Of a stretch of DNA of 64,000 nt, positions 6,697 through 53,406 are shown one piece after another (position 1 is the stretch's first letter; every line of letters begins with the position of its first letter). The stretch lies in sequence record KM190144; one strand, given 5' to 3'. A program made the translations under genes and the position numbers. Source of the DNA: Escherichia phage Av-05. Under the pieces are notes generated by a model that was not told where the DNA came from, ran no database searches, and worked only from the letters and a program-made list of their open reading frames with translations.

Positions 6697-6978
6697 TTAC
6701 CATGTTACAAATATGTTTATAGATGTGCCTTGTTTTGTTGGTTGATAGCTAATAATATCTACCGTGAAGCCACCACCACGAAGATCGCCAACAATATGAG
6801 GCAGGTAATCACCCATTTCCTCCGGGAACTGTAGTGACATACCCATTCCAAATAGACCTTTCTTTGCACACTGGCTGATCCCGTTTACTATCTGGTCGTA
6901 CAGTTCCACCAGAGATTTTGGGGTGTCCTTTTTCGACTTGTTCGCTATCTCTCTCATTTTGCTGGCGACATTTGCCAT
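6697..6978 (-). CDS. Hypothetical protein
   Basis: 93 aa; AGAGG RBS before ATG 6978; in-frame TAA immediately upstream. Confidence 0.45.
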   Translation of the reverse strand: MANVASKMREIANKSKKDTPKSLVELYDQIVNGISQCAKKGLFGMGMSLQFPEEMGDYLPHIVGDLRGGGFTVDIISYQPTKQGTSINIFVTW

Positions 6979-7489
6979 CTTTACCTCTTAAAAAATAGAA
7001 AGGCTTCAAATTAAGGGTGTTCTTTTTGTCCCACACATACCATGCATACCCGCTTCCATCTGTCTTACCATCATCTGTAAAAGATGGTCTTTGAGAAAGT
7101 ACAAGCAGAGATGTTGGAGGATTATCTTGCCACCACTCCCACCTTTTCATACTTTCAAGAAAACCAAGGCGTAGAAGCATGATAACGACATCAGCGTCAC
7201 GTAGAGCTTTCTCAACAAATTCCTGAGCCAGTGAGTATGGAGGGTTAGAGATTATGATGTCTGTGTGATTATACTCTGTTGCCAGATAATCAACACCTTG
7301 ACGTATTTCTCCCCAAGCACTTCCGATTGGTAGAAAATTATAAATCCTACCGGAAGCCCTGCACGGCTCCATATATTTCTTTTTCATATCTATGGGGATG
7401 ACTTCCAACAGGGCTTCAACAGCCCATACTGGGGTTTCATACGTATCGTATTCTCTCCGCTCACTCTTCCTTTTCAGGGGCGCTACCAT
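6809..7489 (-). CDS. Dam-like DNA N6-adenine methyltransferase (small phage type); 3' end probably artefactually extended
   Basis: DIIISNPPYS catalytic motif; removing one T from the T6 run at 6990-6995 gives a 166-aa protein ending ...KPFYF directly before the RBS of the next gene. Confidence 0.6.
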   Translation of the reverse strand: MVAPLKRKSERREYDTYETPVWAVEALLEVIPIDMKKKYMEPCRASGRIYNFLPIGSAWGEIRQGVDYLATEYNHTDIIISNPPYSLAQEFVEKALRDADVVIMLLRLGFLESMKRWEWWQDNPPTSLLVLSQRPSFTDDGKTDGSGYAWYVWDKKNTLNLKPFYFLRGKDGKCRQQNERDSEQVEKGHPKISGGTVRPDSKRDQPVCKERSIWNGYVTTVPGGNG

Positions 7490-8415
7490 CAGTTATTCAC
7501 CTTTTCCATAGCCTCTTTCAAAAGATCTTCTGAGACACCAAGAATCTGATTTAACAAAACGTCCCGCTTATGTGGTATTGTGCGTGTTTCACTTTCACCA
7601 TATCGTAGGCTATTCAGTTGCACAAGGATTCCTTTTAACTCCTCAACATTAAAACCGTCAAAATCACGTTCATTGAGTGTTAGCATATTGAAACTGAAAT
7701 TTTCACCCCCAATCGCTATATTTAGAGGCACTTCCTGTAGTTCATCTTCAGAAACAATATCTATATTTTGCAGTGCTACACTCTTCGACTTTGCAGGTTT
7801 TGTCGTTTTCGGTCCTGTTATATACTTCAGCCCTTGTTGCTCTCTTCGGATATTCTCTTTATCCAGTAAAGCGGCTTCTGTGCGTACCAAAATATCTTCT
7901 TCTGTCAGCCAAACTTCCCCACCACCTTTAATGGTTTCCATTTCTTCAGGTGTTAGCACATCTTTATAGAAATAATCGAAGACACGATCAAAGTAGTCTT
8001 TTTGGAACACAGCTTGGCGGTAAATATTGGATCCGTCTCCACCTATCCAACCCTGGTAGTTATGGAACATAAAAATTGTCAATGGTGAAACAGTTCTCCG
8101 CTCACATGCCAACCATAATACTGTTCCTGCTGAACACACTTGGCCTTCTGCATGAACAATAACCATGGCCTGACTTTCTCTGATGGCGCTAACGTATGCC
8201 ATAGCAATAGCAACATCCCCACCCAATGTATTTATAATAATGCGTACCGTATCCTCTGGGTTGGCTGCACGAATTGTTTGTAACCGCTCTTGGTGGTCTT
8301 CCAACCAATGCATCTCGTTAACGTACACGACATGATTATTGGCATAGGCACGATATGTGAAAACATTAGAAGTCTCTACACGGTTAATATCAAATCCGTT
8401 ATTCAGTTTTTGCAT
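7489..8415 (-). CDS. ClpP-like (S14 family) serine peptidase
   Basis: INTLGGDV...GQVCSAGTVLWLA...MFHNYQGW matches ClpP core with Ser and His motifs; extra N- and C-terminal extensions. Confidence 0.5.
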   Translation of the reverse strand: MQKLNNGFDINRVETSNVFTYRAYANNHVVYVNEMHWLEDHQERLQTIRAANPEDTVRIIINTLGGDVAIAMAYVSAIRESQAMVIVHAEGQVCSAGTVLWLACERRTVSPLTIFMFHNYQGWIGGDGSNIYRQAVFQKDYFDRVFDYFYKDVLTPEEMETIKGGGEVWLTEEDILVRTEAALLDKENIRREQQGLKYITGPKTTKPAKSKSVALQNIDIVSEDELQEVPLNIAIGGENFSFNMLTLNERDFDGFNVEELKGILVQLNSLRYGESETRTIPHKRDVLLNQILGVSEDLLKEAMEKVNN

Positions 8416-8896
8416 TACAAACCTCTTCGTTTTTAATGAGGATACCCCTCAGAATGTGACTATTGCTCAAAAGCCAATCTATATTTATACCGCACTCCTC
8501 GTCAACAATAACTTTGTCACTATATCTGGAGCACCGGATAACTCTACGCGCATACTCAGCCGCTATAGCTGCTTGATGTATGATTGTAAATATGTCAAGT
8601 TCATCTTTAGTAAGATGAATGAACTTAGATTTACCATTCATGCAGATGAGATGCTCTAGCAGCTCAATTCTGTTAGAGAACATCAATTCGGCATCCTTCT
8701 TAGCAGCACTTTCAGAATAAAACATACTAGCTAAGAGGCTTTTATTAACAACTCTTAAAGAATTAGCTACCGTGGTCATATATCTGTTATAAAGCTCAGT
8801 AGCCATCTCTTCAAACACGTCAGGCTCTACAACACCACAATTCTGTAACTTTACCAAGGTATCGTTTGTTAAGACACTGTAGACAGTATTTTTCAT
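8399..8896 (-). CDS. Hypothetical protein
   Basis: ORF in track, 165 aa. Confidence 0.4.
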   Translation of the reverse strand: MKNTVYSVLTNDTLVKLQNCGVVEPDVFEEMATELYNRYMTTVANSLRVVNKSLLASMFYSESAAKKDAELMFSNRIELLEHLICMNGKSKFIHLTKDELDIFTIIHQAAIAAEYARRVIRCSRYSDKVIVDEECGINIDWLLSNSHILRGILIKNEEVCNAKTE

Positions 8897-8902
8897 TGTC
8901 CC

Positions 8903-9211
8903 CTACCTAGCAATTAGATATTGTATCTTTCCGTCATCTTCCTGATACCCAACATCTACAACATAGTATTCCCCAACATCAGGAATCAACAACTTATCCC
9001 CAACCTCGTACTCTTTTGCGGTATGGTATACCATTGATTCTGTAAAATATTTGTACTTATCCATATCGTTAATGTTGCATGAGATTTCCATTTCTCCGTT
9101 GTTGTTGGGTATGAGAATATCCTCACCATTCTTTTTCCCAACCACATAACCACCTACCAATGTTTTAACTAAGCACAGTGTTTTATTGAGTTTGTCTTGG
9201 AACTTTGGCAA
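8903..9211 (-). CDS. Hypothetical protein
   Basis: ORF in track, 102 aa. Confidence 0.4.
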   Translation of the reverse strand: MPKFQDKLNKTLCLVKTLVGGYVVGKKNGEDILIPNNNGEMEISCNINDMDKYKYFTESMVYHTAKEYEVGDKLLIPDVGEYYVVDVGYQEDDGKIQYLIAR

Positions 9212-9728
9212 AAGAATCCTCCATTTTGTCCAGGAATGTTTCCAGGAGTTTTATTCTTTCTGGTGTGTTAAGATTAAGTGTTTTAATCCCTTTCATCTTA
9301 GCAAGATTGACAGCAGTAGCCGTGCCGCCTCTTGGATTGCCATTCTTATCTTCTTTTGCAAAGTAGAGCACAAAGGAAGATGGCTTTGGGTTGTTAATAT
9401 TCACTCCCAACACTTGATGCACATTCCTAGAATGCAACGCAAATGCTGATCTGTTTCTCAACAATGCTTGTGGGTTTGGATGCACCTTTTGCACCAACTC
9501 ATCTCGATATTCTATTTGGTCGATATATAGATGGTTAATATATTGTAAGGCATAATCCCAGTTATCGTACAAACCCACTTCTTTATCACCAAAACCTTTC
9601 CATGGTATGTAGATTTCTGCGAGTCTGTTACCATACAACATTTTGGTTTTATCGTCAAGGCCATCGAAATATCGCTGCATCCCTCTCTGGAACGCTGCAT
9701 CGGCTCCTTCTGCCTTACCGCTCCGCAA
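9183..9728 (-). CDS. Hypothetical protein
   Basis: TTG start; weak DprA/SLOG-like resemblance (GKAEGADAA, RNRSA) not relied on. Confidence 0.35.
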   Translation of the reverse strand: MRSGKAEGADAAFQRGMQRYFDGLDDKTKMLYGNRLAEIYIPWKGFGDKEVGLYDNWDYALQYINHLYIDQIEYRDELVQKVHPNPQALLRNRSAFALHSRNVHQVLGVNINNPKPSSFVLYFAKEDKNGNPRGGTATAVNLAKMKGIKTLNLNTPERIKLLETFLDKMEDSFAKVPRQTQ

Positions 9729-9762
9729 TGTAAACCCTATTTTTTTTTCAAGGAGTTAAGCA

Positions 9763-11013
9763 ATGACAGCAACAACAGGTGTTGGTGGTTTAATTTATGG
9801 TCGTGCATTGGTTGATCAGAGGACAGGAAAGAAAATAAATTTTGATGAACTGGGCGGCGGGAATATTCCAGAAGACATAACAGATCTTATTGCATCTAAA
9901 GCCCCAATAGAAAGCCCTTCATTTACAGGAAACCCCCAAGCACCAACACCGTTGGATGATGCTATTGGAAAGGAAATAGCTAATGTAGAATATGTGAGGG
10001 GTTTAATTGCAAAATTGGCTGACTCAGCGCCTGAAACATTAGATACTCTCAATGAATTAGCGAAGGCATTAGGTGATGACCCTAACTTTGCGACAACCAT
10101 AACTAACGCTCTTGCTGGTAAACAACCATTGAGTGAAATACTGACATCTTTGTCAGGATTGATTACTGCCGGAAATAAACTAGCTTATTTCAGTGACAAA
10201 AACGTAATGGCTTTGGCAAATCTCTCCGCTGTTGGTCGAGTTATTATAGGGCAAGACTCAAAAACTGGGGTTCTTGATTATCTGGGGATAAAAACCGCCG
10301 CTACAAAAGATGTACAAAACGATATCTATGATGCCACCGATGGGGTAGTATCTTTGCCTGGTGCATTTGGTTTTGGGGCGTTTATCCCTGCCGAGAAAGA
10401 AGTTGTTTTTCAAGAGAAGAATGGGCCAGAGGAATGGGTTTCTTGGTTGAGAAGTGCACAACCTGGTCGTTACCTTGTTCGCCAAGATTTACCTTCAGGT
10501 GGTATACGTATTATTGAAGGGATCACATTTAGAGGTATGGTTGAGGTATTGTCCCTATTTCCAGCGGAGAGTGCGGAACAGGCATCTAAAAATAACAAAT
10601 ATGCTTATTTTTATGGTATAAATGGGGAGTTATACTCTTATCGCTTACTGACTATTTTTGCCAGTGGTGACTGGGTGAATATAAAAGGACAATTCTCTTC
10701 TTTACAGTCTACGGTAGACAATTCATGGGGGAGTCCTGATGTTGGAGGAATAATGTTAGGAGTGTATCTTGGCGCTTCGGACACTGATTCAAACAGAAAA
10801 CTTGTTCGTGGTCAGACTATCCCAGGATCCCGCATAGGGTGTATAACTCTTTACAGCAATGTTTCCGCAACAGGTGCATATCAAAGTACACCAGTTTCTG
10901 TTACACACAGTAATGAAACACAGAGAGGCACGTTTGTAGCCTTATCTGGCTCACCAAGCAACAGCGGTGGTACAGCCACAGGTTACATAGGTCTTTTTAT
11001 GAGGATTGCATAA
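9763..11013 (+). CDS. Tail fibre protein
   Basis: SPSFTGNPQAPTP tail-fibre anchor motif; AAGGAG RBS; N-terminus MTATTGVGGLIYGRALVD. Confidence 0.6.
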   Translation: MTATTGVGGLIYGRALVDQRTGKKINFDELGGGNIPEDITDLIASKAPIESPSFTGNPQAPTPLDDAIGKEIANVEYVRGLIAKLADSAPETLDTLNELAKALGDDPNFATTITNALAGKQPLSEILTSLSGLITAGNKLAYFSDKNVMALANLSAVGRVIIGQDSKTGVLDYLGIKTAATKDVQNDIYDATDGVVSLPGAFGFGAFIPAEKEVVFQEKNGPEEWVSWLRSAQPGRYLVRQDLPSGGIRIIEGITFRGMVEVLSLFPAESAEQASKNNKYAYFYGINGELYSYRLLTIFASGDWVNIKGQFSSLQSTVDNSWGSPDVGGIMLGVYLGASDTDSNRKLVRGQTIPGSRIGCITLYSNVSATGAYQSTPVSVTHSNETQRGTFVALSGSPSNSGGTATGYIGLFMRIA

Positions 11014-11582
11014 TGCTGGATATTAAAGATATTAAGTCCCCGCAGTATCTTCTTAATGGTGACGTTGATTGCCTCGTCCTTTTTGAGGGTTTCTCTGATT
11101 ATCTCCCATACACCGCTTCCAGTAACGACTGTAGCGAAACAGGAAAGGCAGTTTGGGATTCCTTACAATCTGGTAATTTTGGGGAGATTGCCCCGTATGT
11201 AGTAAACCCTCAATTTATCGAGGCATTAAAGCAACAGATGTTATCAGAAATAAAAGAGTGGAGAAAACTGGAAGAAAGCTCTACGGCTATTGTTTCTTAT
11301 AATGGTGCAAGGTATGATGTTGATAATGCAACCCTTGGTCGTATTTATCCAGTATTATTAGCACAAAAAGCATCCCCAGCCAGACAAGCTGTGGTTTGGA
11401 GAGATGTTGATAACAAACCTGTAGAGATGAGTAGCTCTGAATTTGAAAATCTTGTTGTAGCTATGTCTTCCGAGTTGGCAACTAAGAATGATTCAATATA
11501 CATCAAGCAACGAGAAATGAAAGATCAAGTGCTTTCAGCCTCTACGATTGAGGAATTACAAAGGATAAAAATTGGGTGGTAG
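11013..11582 (+). CDS. Putative tail fibre assembly/accessory protein
   Basis: Start overlaps fibre stop (ATGA); position between fibre genes. Confidence 0.3.
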   Translation: MLDIKDIKSPQYLLNGDVDCLVLFEGFSDYLPYTASSNDCSETGKAVWDSLQSGNFGEIAPYVVNPQFIEALKQQMLSEIKEWRKLEESSTAIVSYNGARYDVDNATLGRIYPVLLAQKASPARQAVVWRDVDNKPVEMSSSEFENLVVAMSSELATKNDSIYIKQREMKDQVLSASTIEELQRIKIGW

Positions 11583-13222
11583 CTATGGATTATAAGGATA
11601 AAGTTGTCAATGCTGAAGTCATACTTCCAGATGGGCATAGTATTGGAGGATCAGGACTCCCAAGCCAATCTTTTAAATTATACACAGAAGACACCGCGAC
11701 CATAAAACTTTCAGGTAATGGTGAAAAAGCAACACCACTTAAAGGTGTTGTTGTGGTGGCAGAAGATGAAAATAATGCTCTCCAAGCTGGAGATAATGGG
11801 TTAGCTGTTAAGGTGAGTCCTGCTGCAAATAACCTGCTGGAGTTGAAGCAAGGAGCATTATATGTAACAGCACCAGAGATAAATATTCCAATTTCTCCTA
11901 AAGAAGGAAACGCTTTAACAAATATAACCTCTGAAGGGGAAGAGGGGTTGTATGTTGCGCCTACCAAAGTGCAAGGATGGCTTTATGATTCTGCACCTGG
12001 TGTTGCAGCTTTGCCTGGCGCTTTCGGCTACGGAATGACAGATCCTGGAGCAATTTCACTTATTGCTAACAGTCTTGGCGATGTTGCACGTTCTGCCCAT
12101 AACCTACACCCAGGAAGGTATTATACTTTCACCACACGATCTGAGGAAATGACCGGAATAACAGAAATTATCTGGTTGGATAATGGCTGGGGCAACAAAA
12201 CCAGTCAGACAGCAACAAAGCTGGTTCTGTTTTTTGGAAAAGACGGTCGTATGAAGTATACAATCCGTGGCGACAATCTAAGCGATCCGGCAGTGTGGTA
12301 TGATTTGTTAACTACTAAGCAAACAGATATCTATGATCGTACAGAAGGTGTTGTCGCCATACCTGGCATGTTTGGATTCGGTAGTGATTTCGTCGGTATT
12401 GATACTGTCTATTTTAACAACAAAGCGGAGTTCCTTACTTGGGTGCATAATACTCGTTCTGGTCGTTATCTGGTGAGCCAGATATATGGTAGCGAGCCTA
12501 TCATTAACAGCAATGTTACGTTTAGCGGTATTCTTGAGGTTATCCCAACTGGTAGTGTTGGCGTTGGTTACGAGGAGAATTTACCTAACGTATGGAAAAA
12601 CCTTATTTTTTACGGCGCTAATTACGGCGATATCTGGTACACACGTTTTACCACACAACCGAATAACTTGTCTGGTTGGAGGTGCTTAGATAAGACAACG
12701 GATATAATCAATTTGCAGAACTCGCTTAATAGAAAAGCTCCATTGTACAACCCTAATTTCTCTGGTACACCAACAGTACCTACACCAAGCGATTCAGCAT
12801 CAGGAACCCAGATTGCCAACGTAGATTTTGTTAAAAAACAGGTATCTAATAACACTTACACACTGTCTGCTGGCACGGTTACTGTTTTAGATAGTGGATC
12901 ACAACCTACTATTGAGATAACTGGTCAATCACCATCACAGGTTTTAAATTTGGGAATACCAAAAGCACCTGATGGACAAACAATAAAATCTGTCAATGCT
13001 GTTGTTAAAGAAATAGACAGCGCACAACAGGTTACACTAACTTTTACAATGACAGATGATTCAAGTCAACAGGCGAGCTTTAATATCCCGTTTTCTCCTC
13101 AGCCGACTATGAAGCTGTCAGCAACATCTGGGAATTTCTCTTTCAATTATGGCGATACACCTTCAGCGGAAAAACGCAGCGGGAAGATCTGGGTCTTCTA
13201 TATATTTGAAAACAACAGTTGA
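11576..13222 (+). CDS. Tail fibre protein, N-terminal part (frame-shifted relative to 13149-13553)
   Basis: PNFSGTPTVPTPSDSASGTQIANVDFV fibre motif; stop at 13220 inside overlap with next frame. Confidence 0.55.
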   Translation: MVAMDYKDKVVNAEVILPDGHSIGGSGLPSQSFKLYTEDTATIKLSGNGEKATPLKGVVVVAEDENNALQAGDNGLAVKVSPAANNLLELKQGALYVTAPEINIPISPKEGNALTNITSEGEEGLYVAPTKVQGWLYDSAPGVAALPGAFGYGMTDPGAISLIANSLGDVARSAHNLHPGRYYTFTTRSEEMTGITEIIWLDNGWGNKTSQTATKLVLFFGKDGRMKYTIRGDNLSDPAVWYDLLTTKQTDIYDRTEGVVAIPGMFGFGSDFVGIDTVYFNNKAEFLTWVHNTRSGRYLVSQIYGSEPIINSNVTFSGILEVIPTGSVGVGYEENLPNVWKNLIFYGANYGDIWYTRFTTQPNNLSGWRCLDKTTDIINLQNSLNRKAPLYNPNFSGTPTVPTPSDSASGTQIANVDFVKKQVSNNTYTLSAGTVTVLDSGSQPTIEITGQSPSQVLNLGIPKAPDGQTIKSVNAVVKEIDSAQQVTLTFTMTDDSSQQASFNIPFSPQPTMKLSATSGNFSFNYGDTPSAEKRSGKIWVFYIFENNS

Positions 13223-13553
13223 TCTGAACAGAGCACCTGCTGGCAGTACAGATGTTATGGTGGATGTTCGTTTGACAGAGATACCTTGTACGGAAGACGG
13301 TACGTATCTTGATTATGATATCTATGCAGAATACCCAAGTGTTGTCGGGTCAGGGCAACCCACAGTGGCTGTATGGCTTATTCTGCCAACAGTTCCCACG
13401 CATACCATTGATCCCAAGACGAAGATAATAACTAAACTTCTTCGCGGAGACGGTGGCTTATCAGGACTTAATGGAGTCATTCCTATTGCAGGTGCAGACG
13501 AACAAGTCCACGAGTTTAAATATTTCTTGCAATATTCTTATCTAAACAACTAA
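13149..13553 (+). CDS. Tail fibre C-terminal part (+1 frame continuation, no RBS)
   Basis: No Shine-Dalgarno before ATG 13149; frame is +1 to upstream ORF; A5 run at 13170-13174 in overlap. Confidence 0.4.
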   Translation: MAIHLQRKNAAGRSGSSIYLKTTVDLNRAPAGSTDVMVDVRLTEIPCTEDGTYLDYDIYAEYPSVVGSGQPTVAVWLILPTVPTHTIDPKTKIITKLLRGDGGLSGLNGVIPIAGADEQVHEFKYFLQYSYLNN

Positions 13554-13563
13554 GGGGATAATT

Positions 13564-13821: not shown

Positions 13822-13825
13822 TATA

Positions 13826-15435: not shown

Positions 15436-15438
15436 ATT

Positions 15439-23975: not shown

Positions 23976-24676
23976 TGGCAGCAATTCAAAGAATGGACGC
24001 AGCATTGAATCAGTGGTTTGCGAGACAAGCCAGAGACATCCATACAGGATTAAGGGCGAAGGTTGTTGAGGTTGATTATAGCATACCCTCAGCAACTGTA
24101 CAACCTTTAGCATCCACCAATTTCGATGACGGAACAGTAGATGCATATCCTGCTGTTTTCGATGTGCCGCTTTCGATGCCAAGCGCAAACGGCGGTAAGG
24201 CAAGACTTACATTGCCTGTTAAACCCGGTGATATTGTCGGGTTATCTTTTTCAGAGAGAAATGAGTCAGATGCTAATGACTTAACGACACACGGTTTATT
24301 TCCTGGGTGGTCAATCATTGGTGTTCACAGTGATGGGAATGCAATGGTTATCGACCCAAACAATGTGGAATTATGGAACGATCAAGTTCATTTCTCTCTT
24401 GCCCCTGAAGGAGATTTTGTATTAAAAGGCCCAGTGGGAACATTTACTGTTGATAAAGATGGCAAAATGTCTTTTACCAACGGGTCTGCGACATTGACAG
24501 CGAAGCCTGATGGGAATATAGAGATGAATGGGGCGAAGGTGACACCAGATGGGAATATTGTGACAGCTAGAGGTGTGAATTTAAATGATTTCTACGACTG
24601 GTTTGCAAGGCACACACACCACTATGTTTGGACAGACCCATCTGGTGAAAGTGACACAAATGTCCCTAACAAATAA
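23975..24676 (+). CDS. Baseplate central spike (putative)
   Basis: 233 aa; C-terminal HTHHY (HxH-like tip motif). Confidence 0.4.
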   Translation: MAAIQRMDAALNQWFARQARDIHTGLRAKVVEVDYSIPSATVQPLASTNFDDGTVDAYPAVFDVPLSMPSANGGKARLTLPVKPGDIVGLSFSERNESDANDLTTHGLFPGWSIIGVHSDGNAMVIDPNNVELWNDQVHFSLAPEGDFVLKGPVGTFTVDKDGKMSFTNGSATLTAKPDGNIEMNGAKVTPDGNIVTARGVNLNDFYDWFARHTHHYVWTDPSGESDTNVPNK

Positions 24677-24685
24677 GGAGTCTAA

Positions 24686-25213
24686 ATGGCAACTCTCTAT
24701 TCTGATTTATTAATGGATCCTGTTACTGGGGATCTCGATGTCTCAGAAGGTCTTAAACTGATAGAATCAAACCAAGTTAGTCTTCGTCAACGTTTATGGC
24801 TAAGGTTTAATGTCTGGCAAGGAGACTGGTATTTCGATGAGACATTCGGATTCCCATATCGAACATATATTAGCAAGAAGGTTATGAAGACTGTACTTGA
24901 TAATAAGATAAAAGAGGTGACGAGGCAGGAACCGGACGTTTTGGAAATAACTTATTTTCATTCCACAATGGATTCAGGAACAAGAAGCTATCAAGCATAT
25001 TTTGAAGTGACAACCAAAGAACAAGAGGTTGTTAGGATTGCCTTTATAGGGCAGGATGAGTATTATTATCCAGAAGCTGATGCAGGGACAACAATCCTTT
25101 GCGATGATGATGGCTGGATACTTTGGGCTAACAAACTCTATTATCTCATCAATTTCCGTTTGCCTCGTACAGGCGACGCAACTTGGTGGAATAAGTGGGC
25201 AACTAATGAATAA
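24686..25213 (+). CDS. gp25-like baseplate wedge protein
   Basis: VSLRQRLWLRFNVWQGDWYFDETFGFPY resembles GPW/gp25 core. Confidence 0.45.
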   Translation: MATLYSDLLMDPVTGDLDVSEGLKLIESNQVSLRQRLWLRFNVWQGDWYFDETFGFPYRTYISKKVMKTVLDNKIKEVTRQEPDVLEITYFHSTMDSGTRSYQAYFEVTTKEQEVVRIAFIGQDEYYYPEADAGTTILCDDDGWILWANKLYYLINFRLPRTGDATWWNKWATNE

Positions 25214-25216
25214 TGG

Positions 25217-25245
25217 AAAGGGGCATAAGCCCCTTTATTTGTGTT
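25217..25245 (+). terminator. Rho-independent terminator
   Basis: AGGGGC-ATAA-GCCCCT hairpin then TTATTTGTGTTT. Confidence 0.5.
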
Positions 25246-25318
25246 TACTATTTATAATTAAGACATATTGTGGTAAAATAACCACATCTTATAATAATTT
25301 ACAAGAGGAGGCATAATC

Positions 25319-25633
25319 GTGGCTGCTCAATTTGGATTAAATGACTACGGTTTTTCAATTCCGTCCCTTGATGACTTGATAACAGATACCAAGCAATCCC
25401 TTATTAGAGCTTTTGGTGAAAACTTTAACACCCAAACTAACTCCGTTGTTGATAAGATCACTACTATTTTCAACGAAAGGGAATATCAATTAATTCTTTT
25501 GGCTGCATCTATTTATGCAGCACAAACGTTAGCAGGGGCAGAAGGTATATATCTTGACGAGATTCTTGGTCGTCGTGGGATATTCCGTAGAGGAAAAACC
25601 AAAGGGTCCGGTACTGGTTCAAATGGTAATTAA
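25319..25633 (+). CDS. Baseplate J-like protein, N-terminal part (frame-shifted)
   Basis: N-terminus of baseplate J-type protein; stop at 25631 inside overlap with next frame. Confidence 0.45.
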   Translation: MAAQFGLNDYGFSIPSLDDLITDTKQSLIRAFGENFNTQTNSVVDKITTIFNEREYQLILLAASIYAAQTLAGAEGIYLDEILGRRGIFRRGKTKGSGTGSNGN

Positions 25634-26813
25634 TAACACAGTGCCGTATAATATGATTTATGATGCCGCAACATACAGTATTGACGGTGGGAATTTTGTG
25701 TTAACAGAAGATACTGCCGTTGCTGGTAATATCATAGCGCAGCAAATAACCAATCAGGATTGGGTTCTTGGTAACTACACCATCCAGATAGTTAACCAGA
25801 ATGATGGGACAACAAAGACACTGAACCTATCTCTGAAAAACAAAACCCCAAACAGCACCGAATTAAACTCTTTTATGATGGCTATGAAAGAGTTTATAGT
25901 CGATAATACAACTTATCTGAACGAAGATAAGATCTTTATCGAATCTTCTTCAGGAAGTATGTTTATAGGTTATGATCAAAATAAGAAAATGATTGGTCTT
26001 AATGCTCCTGTTGACTTTAGAACATCACCCCTGCTTGGTCAAAGAACAATAACCATGGATGTTATTGCTGTTGAAGCAGGAGAAATATCTAGAGAAGCAG
26101 AGACAGTTACCAACATAAGCCCGACACCAAGTGGTTTTGTTAGCTTGACGAACAGGGAAGCATTTAGTGATGGTACAGATGTTGAGACGGATACAGAATA
26201 TAAGCTGAGGGCTTCGAGCACCACATCAACAGGTGCTGCCGCAACACGGCCAGCTATTGTTTCTGCTGTTTTAAATGTGCCTGGTGTAAGTAAGGTTAAA
26301 ATTTTCTCCAACAATACTGGTGTGACAAACGAGTACGGTGTTCCAGCGTATAAGTTTGAGACAGTAGTCTATGGTGGGGCCACAGAAGATATCAGTAAGG
26401 CACTTTATAATACCATAGCACTCTCTAATGCTACTTATGGTGATGTATTCTATGATGTGACTACAGAAGATGACCAAGTAGAAAGAATTTATCATAGCAA
26501 GGCAAAAGTAAGGCAACTTGAAATTCGTGTCAGATATAAAGGTAAATTACTATCCCTTACAGAACAGAACACGATCAGGGATTCCCTTAAAGCTGTTGTT
26601 GATCCTCTTAACATTGCAGATACGTTGTACAATATCCAACTTGTTTCTGCTGTGGGGTCATCCATCTCATCAGGTAGATTTACTCAACTTTTAGTAGATG
26701 TCAAAAACAAAGGTGAACCAGACAGTACGTATACTAATGATGATATTGTTGCTACTATGACAGAAGTTTTCGCTGTAGAGTTAAATGACATAACTTTCCA
26801 GCAAGTTCTTTAA
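25554..26813 (+). CDS. Baseplate J-like protein, C-terminal part (+1 frame continuation)
   Basis: 419 aa in +1 frame; A5 run at 25594-25598 in the overlap. Confidence 0.45.
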   Translation: MTRFLVVVGYSVEEKPKGPVLVQMVINNTVPYNMIYDAATYSIDGGNFVLTEDTAVAGNIIAQQITNQDWVLGNYTIQIVNQNDGTTKTLNLSLKNKTPNSTELNSFMMAMKEFIVDNTTYLNEDKIFIESSSGSMFIGYDQNKKMIGLNAPVDFRTSPLLGQRTITMDVIAVEAGEISREAETVTNISPTPSGFVSLTNREAFSDGTDVETDTEYKLRASSTTSTGAAATRPAIVSAVLNVPGVSKVKIFSNNTGVTNEYGVPAYKFETVVYGGATEDISKALYNTIALSNATYGDVFYDVTTEDDQVERIYHSKAKVRQLEIRVRYKGKLLSLTEQNTIRDSLKAVVDPLNIADTLYNIQLVSAVGSSISSGRFTQLLVDVKNKGEPDSTYTNDDIVATMTEVFAVELNDITFQQVL

Positions 26814-46371: not shown

Positions 46372-47214
46372 CACTAGTTCAAGGAGTTCGCTACTCTCCC
46401 CCGCACCGTTACGTGCATAGCCACAAGATTTCTCCTGTGGGTCAGACTATATCATAACCCTTTTTCAAGGGTTCCTCCCGTTTGGACCGCGCTTGCTGGC
46501 CTACTCTACTCGCTTCTTCACATCAGATGAAGCTGATGCTATGCTTTCGATAGTCGTTGAACGTCACTTACCAAGTATAGTCTTTAGAGATATGCACCCA
46601 CAATCTCCGTTGTTTAATTCCTTTTACGGATGGGTAGGGGTATCCGAGATCTCTAATCTCGCATTGCCTTAGCCCTGACTGTAGCAATTCACAAATCTCT
46701 CTCACATCTTTTTCTGTGAGAATGGCATTCGCATTGTTTTCACCAATAGGTATAACACGTAATCCTGTATCGTAAGCATGTTTTATATTGCTGCCATGTG
46801 TCCCCCACTCAAGATTCCACGCTGCGTTATTAAGTTTGTTTCCATCTTTATGATTAACGCTGGTGAATCTTTCTGGATCTGGATTAGGCACAAAACATTC
46901 TGCCACCATCCGATGTATGGCTTTCGTACAGGACTTACCGTCTATCCTTATAATTGTACACAGATATCCCCTCCCATTATCAAATACCTGCAAGGGAAGT
47001 TTATCTCTTTTTGAAAGAGGCGTGGAACCATCTTCAAAAACTGTATACCCATGGTAATCTTTTGCTTTTACCATTTTACTATACCTCTTTAAGTTTTCGC
47101 TGCGGATTGGCATATTGTCCTTATAACACAATACATTATAAGAATCAACTTAGCTTTCCCGACAATTAGAGAGGTTTTCGACATGCATTACTGCATGAAG
47201 CCACAATGTTATTT
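46372..47214 (-). mobile_element. Group-I-intron-like insertion 2 in DNA polymerase gene, with HNH ORF
   Basis: Splits motif C; minus strand has R-like GTTCAACGACTA and S-like ATGATATAGTC elements; 5' exon ends U, insertion ends G. Confidence 0.55.
46568..47131 (-). CDS. Intron-encoded HNH homing endonuclease
   Basis: VNHKDGNKLNNAAWNLEWGTHGSN HNH motif; 187 aa inside insertion 2. Confidence 0.65.
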   Translation of the reverse strand: MCYKDNMPIRSENLKRYSKMVKAKDYHGYTVFEDGSTPLSKRDKLPLQVFDNGRGYLCTIIRIDGKSCTKAIHRMVAECFVPNPDPERFTSVNHKDGNKLNNAAWNLEWGTHGSNIKHAYDTGLRVIPIGENNANAILTEKDVREICELLQSGLRQCEIRDLGYPYPSVKGIKQRRLWVHISKDYTW

Positions 47215-47547
47215 ATGGTAGTAGATAACCCTTCTGACACCCTGGTCGTACCATCCCCGTTTCACCAATTCCCAATGGAACAGGACTCCCATGAGGTCAA
47301 ACAATGAAGCACCACCGTTTTGTTGGTAAGCATTCAGCAGAGAATGTTTAGAACGAGTCCAAATTTTACGCCCATCCATACCTGGAATATAGCGTCTCCC
47401 ATTTGCCTCCCAGAATTTTTCTAACCACTCCCTACGCATTTTCAACCCGAAGTTACTATCCCAGAATGCGTCTATTACAGCCTGTGCTCTATTAAGGGGG
47501 ATACCCAGCATTGCGGCTATCTTAGGAGCTTGTGCTCCATACATGAT
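47215..47547 (-). CDS. DNA polymerase (family A), exon 2
   Basis: IMYGAQAPKIAAMLG...YIPGMDGRKIWTRSKHSLLNAYQQNGGASL parallels T7 gp5 region FLYGAG...IKGLDGRKVHVRSPHAALNTLLQSAG. Confidence 0.6.
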
Positions 47548-48281
47548 CATATTGTTCAACATGGCTCGCTACACCATGCCCGTCCTTTTAGGAACTGCTA
47601 CATATTTCTATGCAGATCAGACTATATCTTCATCCTTTTCAGGATGCCCACCGCTTCGGCAGTCTGAAAGACTGGAGGTTTCCCTCACCGCTTGGCCCTA
47701 CGCCTTTCGGCTAGTCGTTGAAGTTTCGAATGCTTCCCAACATTTATGTTCTATTTGATGGCATTTTTTACAAAGTAATTCAAAATTACTTATTTCGTTA
47801 TTCGTCCTGTCATGGTCAATATGATGAACGCACCATTCATCTTTACCTGCATAAAGAAGATCTTTATTACATCTATTACAGTATCTTCTCTGTTCCTTTA
47901 TGACAGGGGATAACTTACGAAACATCGATATGCCATTTTTATAAAATTTGGACAATTTCCCACGAGGCTGCCCACCACCTTTTCCTATGCCAACTCTGTC
48001 AAGCCTATTTTCTCTTTCGGCCTTTCTGCGTCTATATTCTCTGGTTTTTATCTTTGAATATTCTCTTCTACAACCTTCAGAGAGACATACTTTTTGATTT
48101 TTACCAGTTTTAACACATTGTTCACCGCAGATTATACAACAAAATGTGCCCATATTCTCCCTCCTTTTGTAAGAGGGAAGCATTCGCTTACCTGCTGATT
48201 ATCTTCGACATAACTCGGTCAGATTTCCCAGCAATTCAATGGGTGCACCTTACAAATTACTTTGTAAGGGGGCTATCATTA
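47548..48281 (-). mobile_element. Group-I-intron-like insertion 1 in DNA polymerase gene, with HNH ORF
   Basis: Splits motif B region; R-like CTTCAACGACTA and S-like GAAGATATAGTC on minus strand; TAATGATAG stops in all frames right after exon 1. Confidence 0.55.
47698..48183 (-). CDS. Intron-encoded HNH endonuclease (Cys-rich zinc-finger N-terminus)
   Basis: CVHHIDHDRTNNEISNFELLCKKCHQIEH HNH motif; GGAGGGAG RBS. Confidence 0.65.
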   Translation of the reverse strand: MLPSYKRRENMGTFCCIICGEQCVKTGKNQKVCLSEGCRREYSKIKTREYRRRKAERENRLDRVGIGKGGGQPRGKLSKFYKNGISMFRKLSPVIKEQRRYCNRCNKDLLYAGKDEWCVHHIDHDRTNNEISNFELLCKKCHQIEHKCWEAFETSTTSRKA

Positions 48282-50318
48282 ACCATACGTAATCCCCTTT
48301 CCTCCAGAGCGTGTTACCTCCTTTCCTGCTGCTATTGTGTATGCTCTTGCGTTTCGTTCATGGGCATCCTCTTCCATCATGATACGTAAATACTCACCAC
48401 CATCAAACTCAAAAGCCCCTGCTGCAGCAATCATACCTTCTAAGTTAGACCCGTCACAACCCATCAGGTAGTAGCCTTCAGGGACTGTCCAAAGACCCCG
48501 CATTTCTTTTCCCAACAAAACCTTCGGATCAGGCTTGGGCATGTTTGCGCAAACAGTGTGCTTGCACCTGCCCGTGTTAGTGATTCCAGAAAAACGTGCT
48601 GGAAGTTTTCCGTCAATGTCTAAACGAGGGTGATTTAATAACCCTGTATCCGTCTTGTCCTCATCCATTGGGTCTAAAACAGATCGCCTGTTACGAAGTG
48701 ATAACCACTTAACAATCTGTTTTGCCATATGCACATCAATTTTCTCCAGATTTGGACACAGATGCCCAAAATTATCTTTTAGTTGAGGAGATGTCGGTAA
48801 CTGGCGTGCCTTACGCCGAAATTTCTTAAATATCTCTGAATAACCTCTTTCAGATGCATGTCGATGGTCAAACTTACGCTCTGAAATGTTGAATTTCTCA
48901 TCTGAATCATTAAGGTAGTCAAGAATAAGAGATTTATACTCAGACTCAGCCAACTCTTCTATGTACTTCTTAACTAGTACATCAATTTCAGAATCTTCTC
49001 TGGCCTTTTTAAATTGATCCTTCGTAACGTCCTTTACACGCCACAGTGTAGGTTTCCAACCAGCATCTTTGATCAGATATTTTTTAATGTCATCTTGATT
49101 GGAGATTTTCATTGGAACCATTAAATCTGGCATTTTTCTGTTTCGAAGGTCTTCTTTAGCCTTCTCTAGAAGATCCGGCGGCAAAGGTTCGAGTGTGTTC
49201 TCTTTGGTTCGCTGGGAACGAATGAAATTACCGTATAAAGCCGGATCTTCAATGCCATTCTGGATGCAATATCTCTCCCCTGCTGCACTTACATCCCCAT
49301 TACTCTTAAAAGCTGTTTTTGGTGGGGCTTTAAACTCTAGAGCTTCTCTGTTAACAGGATAACCAAGTTTATATTCCAACCAATTCCACCCATGATAAGA
49401 TATATTACCCGCTGTGTCAAAAGGGTTAGCTGGGAATTTTGGTTGTTGGGATTTCGTCATCTCTTTTTTTGGAAGAAGTGGTTCTACCTCTTCTTCAATC
49501 TCCCGCATCATCTTATCTATGCGGTCTCTTAATTTTTCTGCCTCCTCTCGATTAAAGTATACACCCTGTATTTCTTGCTCTATCATCAAATAGTCTGTGA
49601 GCATTCTCCTACGTAATGCATTTTTCCAATTAATCTGGTGCATCCCGTGAGGTTTATCAGCATACATGAACTGCTTGTCATCAGGCCATCGCGTACCATT
49701 TGACTCGTCAATAAGAGCTTTCCACACAAGTTCGTTAATGATAACGTCTTCCCACACACGGTTTACATATTCCCACAATGGTTGATTACGCCAATCATCA
49801 ATCTGTACTTTCTTGTTTGCCACACGATAACCCCATGCCAATAAGCCGTGTGGCCCAACCCTATCACGTTTTCCTGTTACAGGGTTTAATACAGAGTCTG
49901 GGCAGCCATTAGGCAATGGGCGATCTGGGTAAAGAACACGACTCATTGAAAGAGTGTCGTAAAGATTTACCTGTTTATTACCTATCGTCCCCATACATTT
50001 TGGGTCTTTGAACATATCATATTCAATCCCAGAAAGTTTTTTCCACAGACGTAAATCATAGCCAAACAGGTTATGTATTGCTATCCCTCTTGGTTCGGTC
50101 TGTAACCAAGAGTAAAAATCATCATAAGAAAGGATTCGTAAATTAACACCTTCTTTGCTGCGTGCAAAATTAACTGCACTCTGGTATTCCTTGTGAGCAG
50201 GATCGAGAAACAACACCCAGTTATTTACAGCATATTCTTTAAAAAGTGTGCAGTGATATTTAGTTGCCTCTTCTAATAATCCGTCAGCCTCTGTATCGGC
50301 TAAAAAAAGTCCTTTCAT
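48282..50318 (-). CDS. DNA polymerase (family A, T7-like), exon 1 (3'-5' exo plus N-terminal polymerase part)
   Basis: Exo I motif FLADTEADGL; motif A region CDGSNLE; ends ...RSGGKGITYG; AGGAGG RBS before ATG 50318 (track start 50360 upstream of RBS). Confidence 0.65.
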
Positions 50319-50513
50319 ACTCCTCCTATTCAAGATGGGCTTGACTGTATCGTCGCCCATCTCTTAGTTGGTTATAGATTATGTGGAAAACTACCTATTT
50401 TTGATTTATGTTTCTTTGCCAAAGGGCTTCTCTTGGCGGGAATGTATCCCTCAAGCCCCTTGGCAACACGAATAGCTAACTCATCATATTTTACATGTAT
50501 CCTCTTTTTTCTC

Positions 50514-52514
50514 TCAAAATGGAGAATCGCTATCTAAATCTTCAGGTTGCTCAATCACAACAGCAGGTTCTTGTTGAGGAACAGAAACAGCAATTTTCCC
50601 CACAGGTGTTTCAAGTTCCAGACTTTGAATCATTGATTTAGGTCTTAGCATTACCTCCCCATTAAGTTTAAACATACCATCTTCCCACACCCAACCAGAT
50701 GCATCAGAAAACTGACCATTATCATCCATAATCAGAGTATCCGCTATGCCTAATTTTTTGTGTGGACGGTTTTTCAAAACAACACTACGAATACGCCCAC
50801 GAGATCGGTCAGGGAGTTCTTCAGGCTCGACACCTAAGACAACCCACGATAACTGTTCGAGTGCTGCACTTCCCCTTAAAGATTCTTTTCTCACCGGATA
50901 CCAGAAAGGTAACAAATTACCTTCTTTATCTTTCGGAATTTGTATATCAACACGCTTCATATGACTGATACTGAGGATAAACACGTCATATTTTTTGCAG
51001 AAGGCAGCCAATTCCGTCATGATGTTATCTAAATCTCTTCTCTCGTTATCAGATTTTAATCCTGATATCACCATCGACAAGTGATCTAAAATAATCCACC
51101 TACACCCGTCAAGGAAAACCATCTGTTTCAATTTTTGTAGTAATTGGTCAGTCGGTATTGAACCAAAGTGATCAAAAATTTTAACCTTATCTTCGGCAAT
51201 CCACCGTTGGTGTATAGCTAAGTGCTGCTCATCGGTAAGAAATTGCTCTGGATCTGCAACAAATGCTTTCGGGTCAATTTTTAACTCCTCAGCATATAGA
51301 CTGTTTACAGACTCCTCTTCATCCTCCTCTAGACGGATAATTGCAATTTTCTCGTTCTCTTTCCAACCGTCCAGTCGGGGAATATCCATGTTACGGAGGT
51401 ACTCGATAATTGCATACTCAATCTTTCTTGAGAAAGTTGATTTCCCAGCTCCAGATGGGCCTGTCAGTGTCCACAATTCTCCTGTTCGTGGGCCTCTTGT
51501 TAGTTCATACAAACGAGGAAAGCACGGCAACGGAACGCCATCTTTTTTCTTTTTACGGAGATTTTCAATAGATATTCTCTCCAACCCAATCAATTTGTCT
51601 GGAACATATTTATCCTGCGCTTTAGCAAACATGTTCCAGATATCCATCCACTTACCTTTTTTGTAAATATCCCGGATATCTTTAACACCATTTGGGTCAT
51701 TGCGTTCATTTGGGTATCGTGCAACGTAGATATTGTCAGACAGTAAAAAACCTGCGACATCATCTGTAGCTTCCTTGCCTTTCTTAATTCTGTGTTCTTT
51801 TTCCCTTGCTGTGGCTTCATCATTGTCTAAACCAAGGACAATCTTTTCATATTCCCTGATAAACTTTTCGTTGTGGGCAAATGTATCTACCGCATTGGCT
51901 GTTCCACAGTTCAACCCGATAAAAGGTAATGTCGGGCAATTAGAAACCTCCTCACCATCCTGAATGGCTTTGATACCTTTTAAAGCATTGTTTGCCCACT
52001 CACGTACTGAACGTGACGTATTAGGATTACTATGAAGAAATTTAATATACTCAAACCCAGCTTGCCAGCCAGCCGTTACATCGCCTTCCCCCTCAACAAT
52101 AAAGATCTGTTTTTTACCAGATCCCATAGAGGCCTCATGTTGACCAAAAAATTGAGAGGAAGCCTTTACTGTGCCAACAACAGAGAAATGCCCCTTTTTC
52201 TCTTTCGGAACAGTCCAGTCTCGTTTCTTGTACCCTGTCAATTTCCCATATTTGTCATAATATGGAAGATATGTTGCCACTACTGTAGTACCGTCTTTCA
52301 AATCTGTTGCAGATCTGATCTTGAAGTACTTAGCTGCATCTAAACTAATATCCATTTGGGGGACAGCCAAGATCCTTGTACTATCCAGGACAGACTCTAC
52401 AGTTTCTTCTTCTTTTTTCTGATAATTCACTTTACCACCACTTTTTGTAGGTCGGAATGCTTTTGGGTTCTCACCTTCAAAGTATGCACCAGCCCCCCAT
52501 TTTGTAATCTTCAT
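50514..52514 (-). CDS. Primase-helicase (TOPRIM primase fused to DnaB-like helicase, T7 gp4-like)
   Basis: TOPRIM IFIVEGEGD and LGLDNDEAT; Walker A LTGPSGAGKST; Walker B WIILDHLS; acidic C-terminus ending DSDSPF. Confidence 0.7.
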   Translation of the reverse strand: MKITKWGAGAYFEGENPKAFRPTKSGGKVNYQKKEEETVESVLDSTRILAVPQMDISLDAAKYFKIRSATDLKDGTTVVATYLPYYDKYGKLTGYKKRDWTVPKEKKGHFSVVGTVKASSQFFGQHEASMGSGKKQIFIVEGEGDVTAGWQAGFEYIKFLHSNPNTSRSVREWANNALKGIKAIQDGEEVSNCPTLPFIGLNCGTANAVDTFAHNEKFIREYEKIVLGLDNDEATAREKEHRIKKGKEATDDVAGFLLSDNIYVARYPNERNDPNGVKDIRDIYKKGKWMDIWNMFAKAQDKYVPDKLIGLERISIENLRKKKKDGVPLPCFPRLYELTRGPRTGELWTLTGPSGAGKSTFSRKIEYAIIEYLRNMDIPRLDGWKENEKIAIIRLEEDEEESVNSLYAEELKIDPKAFVADPEQFLTDEQHLAIHQRWIAEDKVKIFDHFGSIPTDQLLQKLKQMVFLDGCRWIILDHLSMVISGLKSDNERRDLDNIMTELAAFCKKYDVFILSISHMKRVDIQIPKDKEGNLLPFWYPVRKESLRGSAALEQLSWVVLGVEPEELPDRSRGRIRSVVLKNRPHKKLGIADTLIMDDNGQFSDASGWVWEDGMFKLNGEVMLRPKSMIQSLELETPVGKIAVSVPQQEPAVVIEQPEDLDSDSPF

Positions 52515-52665
52515 CTCTTCTCCTTAGAAGGGTTTGGCAACTACAGCCATATACCAGCCATTACACACAGATATGCCACCTGAGATACAGTAGCCTTTTC
52601 TAAACCAAGTGTTTAGTTTTGATTCTAATTCTGAAATACTGGTTCCTGTGAGAATCTTGACATTT

Positions 52666-53406
52666 TTATCCACCAACCCTCCTAAAATCATTATATAGGA
52701 ATACAGCTTTGGCAAAACCTCTTGGGGTTAACGATCTTATAACCTTTGTCTTTTTTGATTTGCCACCCAATTTTAGGTGCTGCTCAGAATACCCGTCTAA
52801 CACGGGGACGGGTAATTTCTCAGGCATCTTAAAACCATTGCCTGTCCACAAACAAGTCTTTTTAGGGTAGGCATCTCTGGGTTTTATGTATTCTGGAAAA
52901 AATGGATGAACATCATTCTCTGGTAGATACCCGCCGTACTCATAAGGATGAAATGAATAGTCTGGTTTACGCCACAGAGAAGATAGAACACTAACTGGAT
53001 TTTCTATCATGTAAGGGCAGCCGTATTCATCTGCCAGCCTTGCTGCCACTTTTGCTGTATTTACAGCCTTTATCTGGAATAAAGGGTCTTTTGCAGCTTT
53101 TCTTGCGAAATGCGCTGCGCCACTAACAGCCATATCTGTGCATGGTGGGAATGCGAATATAATACTTGGCGTACATATCCCTATCTCTACTGGGTTAAAC
53201 TGGTCGTCTATCCAAACATTGATATATTCTATATTTTTGTGTTTTATTCTGATACTTTCATAACCACCGTGATCAGCGCCATCATAGTTAAGGCATATTA
53301 CTTTGTACCCATTCTTTGCCCACTCATAACCCATGATGCCGGATCCGTCAAACATGCACAAAACTGTATCACTCAATACACCTCCTATACCAGAAAACAG
53401 GCCCAT
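52666..53406 (-). CDS. DNA (cytosine-5)-methyltransferase-like protein
   Basis: Motif I LFSGIGG, motif IV FPPCTDMAVSG, ENV-like IENPVS; short (246 aa) for this family. Confidence 0.45.
   Translation of the reverse strand: MGLFSGIGGVLSDTVLCMFDGSGIMGYEWAKNGYKVICLNYDGADHGGYESIRIKHKNIEYINVWIDDQFNPVEIGICTPSIIFAFPPCTDMAVSGAAHFARKAAKDPLFQIKAVNTAKVAARLADEYGCPYMIENPVSVLSSLWRKPDYSFHPYEYGGYLPENDVHPFFPEYIKPRDAYPKKTCLWTGNGFKMPEKLPVPVLDGYSEQHLKLGGKSKKTKVIRSLTPRGFAKAVFLYNDFRRVGG

Follow-up and report, generated by a model that had tools for sequence, protein, structure and literature searches.

Background

Phage DNA methyltransferases (MTases) related to two genes of Escherichia phage Av-05 (sequence record KM190144) have been described as triggers of retron defence, and we here analyse these two genes, referred to as gene 1 and gene 2, in a stretch of 64,000 nucleotides (nt) of Av-05 DNA (the window). 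The Dcm protein of phage K42, which is near-identical to the version in phage KarlJaspers, triggers retron Ec86/Eco1; by liquid chromatography coupled to mass spectrometry (LC-MS), K42 Dcm raises 5-methylcytosine (5mC) on the multicopy single-stranded DNA (msDNA) of Ec86, whereas a C82A/E128A/K175A/K176A mutant does not, and altering the CCTGG site of the msDNA abolishes Ec86 defence (bioRxiv 10.1101/2023.08.16.553469). An N6-adenine MTase of phage Bas51 triggers retrons Asa1 and Squ1, with escape mutations D69G, D79G and T83P, of which T83P nearly abolishes N6-methyladenine (6mA) at GATC in phage DNA, as determined by nanopore sequencing (PMC12548924). The three mutants still form plaques at control levels (PMC12548924), so that the Bas51 gene is dispensable in the laboratory. 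In the phenotyping of the BASEL phage collection, Vequintavirinae and their relatives were found to be 'exceptionally susceptible' to restriction-modification systems (PMC8594841).

Two solitary methyltransferase genes in the window

We confirmed two MTase open reading frames (ORFs) in the window, both on the minus strand, at the positions given by the original prediction, which had been made from the sequence alone:

6809-7489, minus strand: gene 1 ORF, 226 amino acids (aa)
52666-53406, minus strand: gene 2 as first read, from an ATG at 53406, 246 aa

The reading that we favour, and consider likely, is that these are two solitary MTases, gene 1 a minimal TaqI/HsdM-like enzyme (6mA, GATC) and gene 2 a minimal Dcm-like enzyme (5mC, probably CCWGG), which would together produce Dam- and Dcm-like methylation patterns. 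Our own analysis provides the homology and motifs, the predicted folds and the synteny, as well as the gene boundaries given below; the 6mA-GATC and 5mC activities come from papers on relatives, from which we also infer the GATC and CCWGG specificities in phage Av-05 and the biological role.

The two regions show 94% and 92% nucleotide identity to Escherichia phage vB_EcoM_TH18 as well as to three sister isolates; judged by its sequence, the source phage is TH18-like and belongs to the Vequintavirinae (rV5-like coliphages, myoviruses). Each protein matches a PHROG labelled 'DNA methyltransferase' (phrog_799, E = 2e-80 for gene 1, and phrog_757, E = 9.4e-88 for gene 2), and we identified 4556 homologues of gene 2 (90%-identity clusters) and 110 of gene 1, so that neither ORF is a product of chance. 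Both belong to large phage families. Neither protein scored above any curated cut-off in Pfam or NCBIfam, and PDB searches with the single sequences returned noise only; the MTase assignment thus rests on PHROGs, profile searches, predicted folds and the characterised relatives. That the two enzymes differ in chemistry (N6-adenine and C5-cytosine), as had been proposed, is borne out by PHROGs, motifs and characterised relatives, and that both are solitary agrees with the ten neighbouring ORFs, among which no restriction nuclease was found. Both are conserved, syntenic core genes of the Vequintavirinae group. The pair is real but ordinary, already known and previously annotated in rV5-like phages. 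What needs correcting in the original prediction is its list of motifs, its boundaries for both genes and its functional reading.

Family assignment of gene 1

The following features of gene 1 carry its assignment:

6989..7489, minus strand: catalytic core, aa 1-167, the region with the phrog_799 match and the orthologue of bas51_0176 of phage Bas51
7430..7441, minus strand: motif X-like YETP, aa 17-20, aligning to ETP of M.TaqI (translation verified)
7349..7369, minus strand: motif I EPCRASG, the S-adenosylmethionine (SAM)-binding loop, aa 41-47, aligning to LEPACAHG of M.TaqI (translation verified)
7235..7246, minus strand: motif IV NPPY (catalytic), aa 82-85 (translation verified)

The NPPY motif on which the adenine MTase had been recognised is thus present, and in an alignment of 41 gene 1 relatives Y17, T19, N82, P83 and P84 are invariant, whereas P42, G47 and D67 are near-invariant (P42 and G47 occur in at least 90% of the relatives). 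The motifs follow the gamma-class order X-I-II-III-IV, with YETP, EPCRASG, D67, D77 and NPPY. The profile of the 41 relatives matches M.TaqI (E = 7e-9), with motifs X to IV and the acidic residues in register, followed by Erm/KsgA rRNA methyltransferases and type I HsdM subunits. In the AlphaFold model, the predicted local distance difference test score (pLDDT) of the core exceeds 90 over about aa 20-167, and the best Foldseek matches of the model are HsdM, PacII, CamA and DIMT1. Single-sequence Pfam scores for related families remain below their cut-offs (EcoRI_methylase PF13651, 15.4 bits against 26.4; Eco57I PF07669, 12.0 against 25.3).

Dam is an alpha-class MTase. We found no match of gene 1 to the alpha-class Dam family in Pfam or NCBIfam, the scores being 14.8 bits for the phage Dam family PF05869 (cut-off 28.1) and 14.1 for TIGR01712 (cut-off 97.05). 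The family core ends at aa 166-170 without a C-terminal target-recognition domain, and gene 1 has no HsdS-like neighbour. Because of the M.TaqI profile match, the motif order, the HsdM, PacII and CamA fold matches and the sub-threshold Dam scores, gene 1 is, by descent, a gamma-class TaqI/HsdM-like amino-methyltransferase cut down to its catalytic domain and no member of the Dam family. The term 'Dam-like' used for it is therefore apt for the probable product (6mA at GATC, from Bas51) but not for the family, which is TaqI/HsdM-like by homology.

Correspondence of gene 1 to the Bas51 adenine methyltransferase

Over aa 1-167, gene 1 is 60% identical to a 177-aa 'putative N6 adenine methyltransferase' of the BASEL phages Bas48 and Bas51, and the gene order is shared, with a ClpP-like protease upstream and a homologous gene of 93/94 aa downstream. 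Comparison of the published escape residues to the two adenine MTases of Bas51 shows that they fit bas51_0176 (D69, D79, T83) and not bas51_0070 (C69, G79, E83). In gene 1 these three positions correspond to D67, D77 and S81, the last of which directly precedes NPPY. Best match, positions of the mutated residues and gene neighbourhood thus agree in pairing gene 1 with bas51_0176; gene 1 is its orthologue, and 6mA at GATC most likely its product.

Bas51, a Vequintavirus, encodes, in addition to orthologues of both Av-05 genes, a third MTase, bas51_0070 (24457-25782 of its record), a protein of 441 aa with a DPPF motif whose gene lies between a helicase gene and the Dcm-like gene. No counterpart of bas51_0070 was found in the window by tblastn. 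The retron study also quantified adenine methylation at GTAC, and its S2 Fig gives the 6mA motif that predominates in the T83P mutant (PMC12548924), which might be the site of bas51_0070.

Start codon of gene 2

The start of gene 2 was reassessed with the following features:

52666..53376, minus strand: revised gene 2 coding sequence (CDS) with a TTG start at 53376, 236 aa and 711 nt, a predicted Dcm-like minimal C5-cytosine MTase
53381..53386, minus strand: Shine-Dalgarno sequence AGGAGG, 4 nt before the TTG at 53376-53374 (GGGAGG in TH18)
53399..53416, minus strand: terminator-like hairpin AGGCCCA-GCTA-TGGGCCT, then GTTTTCT, found by scan; its loop and 3' arm hold the ATG at 53404-53406
53380..53397, minus strand: 'FSGIGG' pseudo-motif, aa 4-9 of the 246-aa ORF, the terminator tail and ribosome-binding site read as codons

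The DNA runs AGGCCCA-GCTA-TGGGCCT GTTTTCT GGTATAGGAGGT GTA TTG, that is, hairpin, T-run, AGGAGG and TTG 53376, and these elements (53374-53416) sit between the upstream 73-aa gene and gene 2. The alignment of every gene 2 relative starts at aa 13-16 of the 246-aa ORF, and the AlphaFold pLDDT falls below 50 at aa 1-6. In TH18 (94% identical), the ATG is lost (TTACGGG), whereas the hairpin, the T-run, GGGAGG and the TTG are kept, and the annotated CDS comprises the same 711 nt. Gene callers picked the same hairpin-internal ATG in a 98%-identical metagenome protein. Because the alignments begin at aa 13-16, AGGAGG precedes the TTG by 4 nt, the ATG lies inside the hairpin and TH18 lacks it, gene 2 most likely starts at TTG 53376.

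The FSGIGG that had been listed as a C5-MTase motif is consequently an artefact: no relative aligns there, its 'GIGG' is GGT ATA GGA GGT, which contains AGGAGG and hence the ribosome-binding site, and the ATG from which it is read belongs to the hairpin. On these grounds, together with the TH18 comparison, FSGIGG was ruled out as motif I.

Family and fold of gene 2

Four further features of gene 2, numbered here and below by the 246-aa ORF, bear on its family:

53338..53352, minus strand: probable motif I FDGSG (SAM loop), aa 19-23 (family consensus SLFDxTG / FDGSG), aligning with motif I of DNMT2 and M.HaeIII
53140..53148, minus strand: motif IV PPC, aa 87-89, with the catalytic Cys89 (C82 of K42 Dcm), in register with FPC of M.HhaI
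52996..53004, minus strand: motif VI ENP, aa 135-137, with Glu135 (E128 of K42 Dcm), aligning with ENV of M.HhaI
52858..52863, minus strand: Lys182-Lys183, corresponding to K175/K176 of K42 Dcm, which are proposed to bind the substrate; K182 occurs in at least 90% of the relatives

The PPC and ENP motifs named in the original prediction are both present and conserved. In an alignment of 81 diverse gene 2 relatives, E135 is invariant and F86, P87, C89, N136 and P137 are near-invariant (at least 90% for C89, N136 and P137). Motif I is probably the variant FDGSG, at the expected place, compared to the canonical FxGxGG. The homologues comprise 1082 cluster representatives at 50% identity. Among 50,697 phage records, 1506 contain a homologue, with Dhillonvirus, Drexlerviridae, Webervirus and Vequintavirus represented, and many of these homologues carry the annotation DNA cytosine methyltransferase; the GenBank genomes closest to the window leave gene 2 as 'hypothetical protein'.

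Gene 2 itself matched no Pfam or NCBIfam family at all, PF00145 included at E values up to 1, and 7 of the 81 relatives matched PF00145 weakly (best E = 0.0067). Weak matches of the family profile to DNMT2 and M.HaeIII span motifs I to IV in register (PPC on PPC), and hhalign of gene 2 with M.HhaI, the sequence of which was entered by hand, aligned motifs IV to VI only (E = 0.055) and left the HhaI N304 position unaligned. The AlphaFold model has a pLDDT of 92.9, and the top 50 Foldseek matches are all DNMT3-family chains, mainly DNMT3A and DNMT3B, so that the predicted structure is that of a C5-methyltransferase fold. A target-recognition domain of the usual size is absent, with about 35 residues between the strand at 184-189 and the helix at 218-225. 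The original view of gene 2 as a short C5 enzyme, perhaps with a curtailed target-recognition region, is upheld, and its shortness comes from that of all members of its family (roughly 225-260 aa throughout); the accompanying suggestion that it may act on another substrate is unlikely, given that K42 Dcm, at 56% identity, deposits 5mC on DNA.

Correspondence of gene 2 to K42 and KarlJaspers Dcm

The product of gene 2 is 56% identical over 229 aa to that of the 711-bp dcm gene of phage KarlJaspers (Bas06), and all four residues mutated in K42 Dcm (C82, E128, K175 and K176) are conserved, as C89, E135, K182 and K183. In Bas51, bas51_0074, a 'Dcm-like C5 cytosine methyltransferase', adjoins the primase/helicase gene, as gene 2 does. 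Gene 2 most likely makes 5mC, probably in CCWGG, if the activity of these relatives is a guide.

Among the pentamers of the window, CCWGG ranks first (1 of 512) in under-representation (47 observed vs. 108.8 expected, observed/expected (O/E) 0.43), and GGWCC (O/E 0.34) comes second; the lowest 4-mer palindromes are GGCC, CTAG and CGCG. The pentamer depletion suggests that sites for restriction enzymes of the EcoRII and AvaII/SinI kinds are avoided. The depletion of CCWGG fits pressure from CCWGG-cutting enzymes and is no proof of the gene 2 target. We also considered a signature of 5mC deamination as evidence of CCWGG methylation and set it aside as ambiguous, the O/E being 1.19 for CTTGG/CCAAG but 0.68 for CTAGG/CCTAG, with GGWCC also depleted.

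Probable roles of the two enzymes

Under the favoured reading, gene 1 (~167 aa, without a separate target-recognition domain) would place 6mA at GATC, and gene 2, a C5-MTase of 236 aa with FDGSG, the PPC cysteine, ENP and a very small DNMT3-like recognition region, would place 5mC, so that both together would put Dam- and Dcm-like patterns on the fast-replicating phage DNA. The resulting protection would be narrow, directed at enzymes that cut GATC or CCWGG (MboI/DpnII-type and EcoRII-type) and amounting to no broad anti-restriction, and it would come at a cost, both MTase families being sensed by retron defence systems.

Several observations weigh against this reading. The GATC result for Bas51 came from a dam+ host, and GATC depletion in the window is mild (O/E 0.72) and similar to that of several other 4-mer palindromes. 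For K42 Dcm, the CCWGG specificity was assumed by analogy with E. coli Dcm, to which it is unrelated, and was tested via mutation of the msDNA site only, and because GGWCC is depleted too, the k-mer signal may reflect general restriction avoidance rather than the target of gene 2. The specificities are transferred across 56-60% identity, and minimal MTases can switch specificity. Finally, neither protein exceeds a curated Pfam or NCBIfam threshold, with just the weak PF00145 matches noted above among the relatives of gene 2.

Two alternatives retain some weight, each of them in our judgement unlikely. Both genes might encode active DNA MTases whose main role lies inside the phage, as marks for replication, packaging or gene timing, or in the avoidance of MutH or very-short-patch repair. 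Such a role would suit the conservation and synteny of both genes across Vequintavirinae genera in phages that are nevertheless restriction-sensitive, as well as the position of gene 2 in the replication module, adjoining the primase/helicase; in phage P1, pac-site cutting requires the phage's own Dam. However, the window offers no direct evidence for an internal role, and the plaque formation of the Bas51 D69G, D79G and T83P mutants argues against it. The enzymes might, alternatively, be active with specificities other than GATC, CCWGG or both, which we hold to be about as doubtful. The modest identity of the characterised relatives would allow this, as would the fact that CCWGG was inferred for K42 Dcm and not mapped genome-wide, and the possible DNA-reading regions (aa 141-224 of gene 2 and the loops of gene 1) differ from those of the relatives. 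Against it, the segments of gene 2 between motifs VI and X belong to its best conserved parts (consensus WRKPD..F.P.EYGGYLP and RDAY.K.TCLWTG), and CCWGG is the pentamer that the window avoids most.

The original prediction had suggested that the two orphan MTases jointly give broad protection against host restriction, which we now regard as highly improbable. Two base chemistries and the lack of a partner nuclease would agree with it, and orphan MTases of phages are a known anti-restriction strategy. Yet the Vequintavirinae are sensitive to restriction-modification (PMC8594841), and Bas51 carries orthologues of both genes and the third MTase; E. coli K-12 itself already methylates both expected sites, a 4-mer and a 5-mer, which thus only copy the host Dam and Dcm patterns; and the avoidance of CCWGG and GGWCC in the sequence points to site avoidance as a parallel strategy.

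Least probable of all, and hardly credible, is that gene 2 transfers another group or acts on RNA or nucleotides and that gene 1 is an RNA adenine MTase: E. coli makes carboxy-SAM (Cx-SAM), gene 1 resembles Erm and KsgA/DIMT1 rRNA methyltransferases and its orthologue is labelled TrmN6 in one phage record, but the K42 orthologue of gene 2 yields 5mC by LC-MS, and in Bas51 phage DNA 6mA at GATC depends on the orthologue of gene 1. Phage CmoX enzymes transfer a carboxymethyl group from Cx-SAM, and the published choice of CmoX candidates relied on an SPPC motif together with an Arg in place of HhaI N304, the candidates typically lying beside genes for CmoA and a CmoY-type (AMP-forming) ligase (PMC12783734). 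A CmoX-like carboxymethyltransferase was rejected as very unlikely for gene 2, which has FPPC, not SPPC, and no neighbour labelled methyltransferase or AMP-forming ligase.

Taken together, these results change little for the biology of the phages, the genes being conserved and annotated and their relatives characterised in 2023 and 2025. Their practical value is one of correction: gene 2 was mis-started from an ATG, and the adenine enzyme is TaqI-like rather than of the Dam family. The pair is better read as mimics of Dam and Dcm and as retron liabilities than as a broad anti-restriction kit, which is relevant to predicting, for therapeutic phages of the Vequintavirinae, the host range or the sensitivity to defence systems.

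The overlapping frame at the end of gene 1

The adenine MTase had been taken to fill 6809-7489, an extent that does not hold for the conserved protein, as the family core stops at aa 167 and codons 168-226 are poorly conserved and lie over the next gene:

6809..6988, minus strand: C-terminal tail of gene 1, 59 codons (codons 168-226) and stop, a second frame over the next gene
6697..6978, minus strand: downstream gene of unknown function, 93 aa, 41% identical over aa 7-93 to bas48_0175 of Bas48, phrog_12158

The overlap of the two reading frames amounts to 170 nt (6809-6978, minus strand), in different frames that are both open. Because homology to Bas48 extends over aa 7-93 and the phrog_12158 match runs end to end, the downstream gene is real along its whole length. 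GenBank annotators settle the overlap by shortening it to 39-49 aa. Most gene 1 relatives terminate at aa 166-171, and 74 phage records match over 80% or more of the 226-aa query. Of the 67 close homologue clusters, 35 lack the tail, 20 have a long one and 12 an intermediate one, and three carry unrelated tails rich in Lys and Arg. The long tail was seen in TH18-like phages, Seunavirus and Mydovirus, and Vequintavirus lacks it. Its sequence is poorly conserved (16-29 of 59 residues), and in the AlphaFold model a helix at aa 172-188 has a pLDDT of about 70, with values below 60 for the remainder.

To assess the openness of the tail frame, we held the downstream protein fixed and redrew its synonymous codons with the phage's own usage in 20,000 trials; the MTase frame remained open in only 0.035-0.115% of the reshuffles (the window, Seunavirus with n = 2 phages, and Mydovirus with n = 2 phages). 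In the same relative frame across 68 genes of the window, stops occurred at a rate of 0.10 per codon, and of all windows of 56 codons 0.43% were open. None of the at-risk codon junctions before the terminal stop was preceded by T in the three long-tail lineages (0/19, 0/18 and 0/14), and in Bas48, which has a short MTase, T precedes 5 of 14 such junctions, resulting in five stops in the first 55 codon junctions. Stop avoidance in the MTase frame thus far exceeds chance in three genera and is absent in Bas48. The expected dual-coding sign of reduced synonymous change was not seen, the overlap being, if anything, more diverged (nt identity 0.59-0.73) than the sequence outside (0.64-0.86). A programmed -1 frameshift at T_TTT_TTA, located at the core end in the window and in TH18 and giving a short Bas51-like product, was likewise rejected as a conserved mechanism, as Seunavirus has TAT TTC CTG at that place.

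The pattern looks like selection for an open frame. Because the lineages are related and the stop-avoidance test is not phylogeny-aware, we lean slightly against the view that the tail is a selectively kept, overprinted second frame rather than an annotation accident, while treating it as a serious possibility. The tail might supply the MTase, which lacks a recognition domain, with a charged and partly helical appendage for DNA binding or regulation; another possibility is that it uncouples the translation of gene 1 and the downstream gene. If truly functional, the overlapping frame would be a small, clean case of overprinting on a DNA-modifying enzyme.

Neighbouring genes

The ten neighbouring ORFs comprise a ClpP-like protease, a tRNA nucleotidyltransferase, a primase/helicase, an ORF in a DNA ligase PHROG and small unknowns. 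A motif scan of all ORFs in the window revealed no other amino- or C5-MTase signature in a plausible gene. The tRNA nucleotidyltransferase is a full-length CCA-adding enzyme (5094-6350, minus strand; phrog_2244, E = 2.5e-144) encoded two genes downstream of gene 1.

Near gene 2, a 63-aa ORF (52524-52715, minus strand) overlaps the 3' end of gene 2 by 50 nt; because its match to phrog_17689 is limited to aa 16-63, its true start probably lies further downstream and the overlap is probably spurious. The 73-aa ORF directly upstream of gene 2 (53434-53655, minus strand) matches phrog_10384 'DNA ligase' (E = 2.7e-30), a label that is probably an annotation carry-over, the ORF being far too short for a ligase. 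The primase/helicase of TH18 is ~930 bp longer than that of the window (positions 3948-4877 of the TH18 record vs. about 50870-50879 of the window; 975 aa vs. a 666-aa ORF), and in the TH18 protein, whose extra 309 aa were checked for an intein or homing endonuclease, Pfam shows only DnaB_C and AAA_25; the insert may be an intein or another domain.

Comparison with known systems

Among the adenine MTases, gene 1 has all motifs in common with bas51_0176 of Bas51 (WalterGehring), with D67 and D77 kept and S81 replacing T83, but the bas51_0176 protein ends 10 residues past the core, whereas the gene 1 ORF continues with the 59-codon tail over the downstream gene. Gene 1 agrees with M.TaqI and HsdM in motifs X, I, II, III and IV, both in their order and in their sequence, and in its Rossmann-type catalytic fold; the M.TaqI chain has 421 aa compared to ~167 aa in gene 1, which lacks both a C-terminal target-recognition domain and a specificity subunit. 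The Dam proteins of E. coli and T4 probably have the same product as gene 1 (6mA at GATC, transferred from Bas51) but show no homology to it at the family level.

Of the C5-MTases, the Dcm of K42 and KarlJaspers has the same 711-nt length as gene 2 with the revised start, and both have a DNMT3-like fold; KarlJaspers Dcm is found in Drexlerviridae, whereas gene 2 belongs to Vequintavirinae, where it adjoins the primase/helicase. Compared to DNMT3A, DNMT3B, M.HhaI and M.HaeIII, gene 2 is much shorter (236 aa vs. 327 aa in M.HhaI), with a few dozen residues at the place of the target-recognition domain. Bacterial C5-MTases have an FxGxGG motif I and a motif X, whereas gene 2 has FDGSG and TPRGFA instead, without a PF00145 match. 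The CmoX enzymes share their fold with gene 2. E. coli Dcm (M.EcoKDcm, CCWGG) possibly has the same site and product as gene 2 but is no orthologue, the two having no NCBIfam or Pfam family in common at threshold; the name 'Dcm-like' in phage annotations reflects the presumed function.

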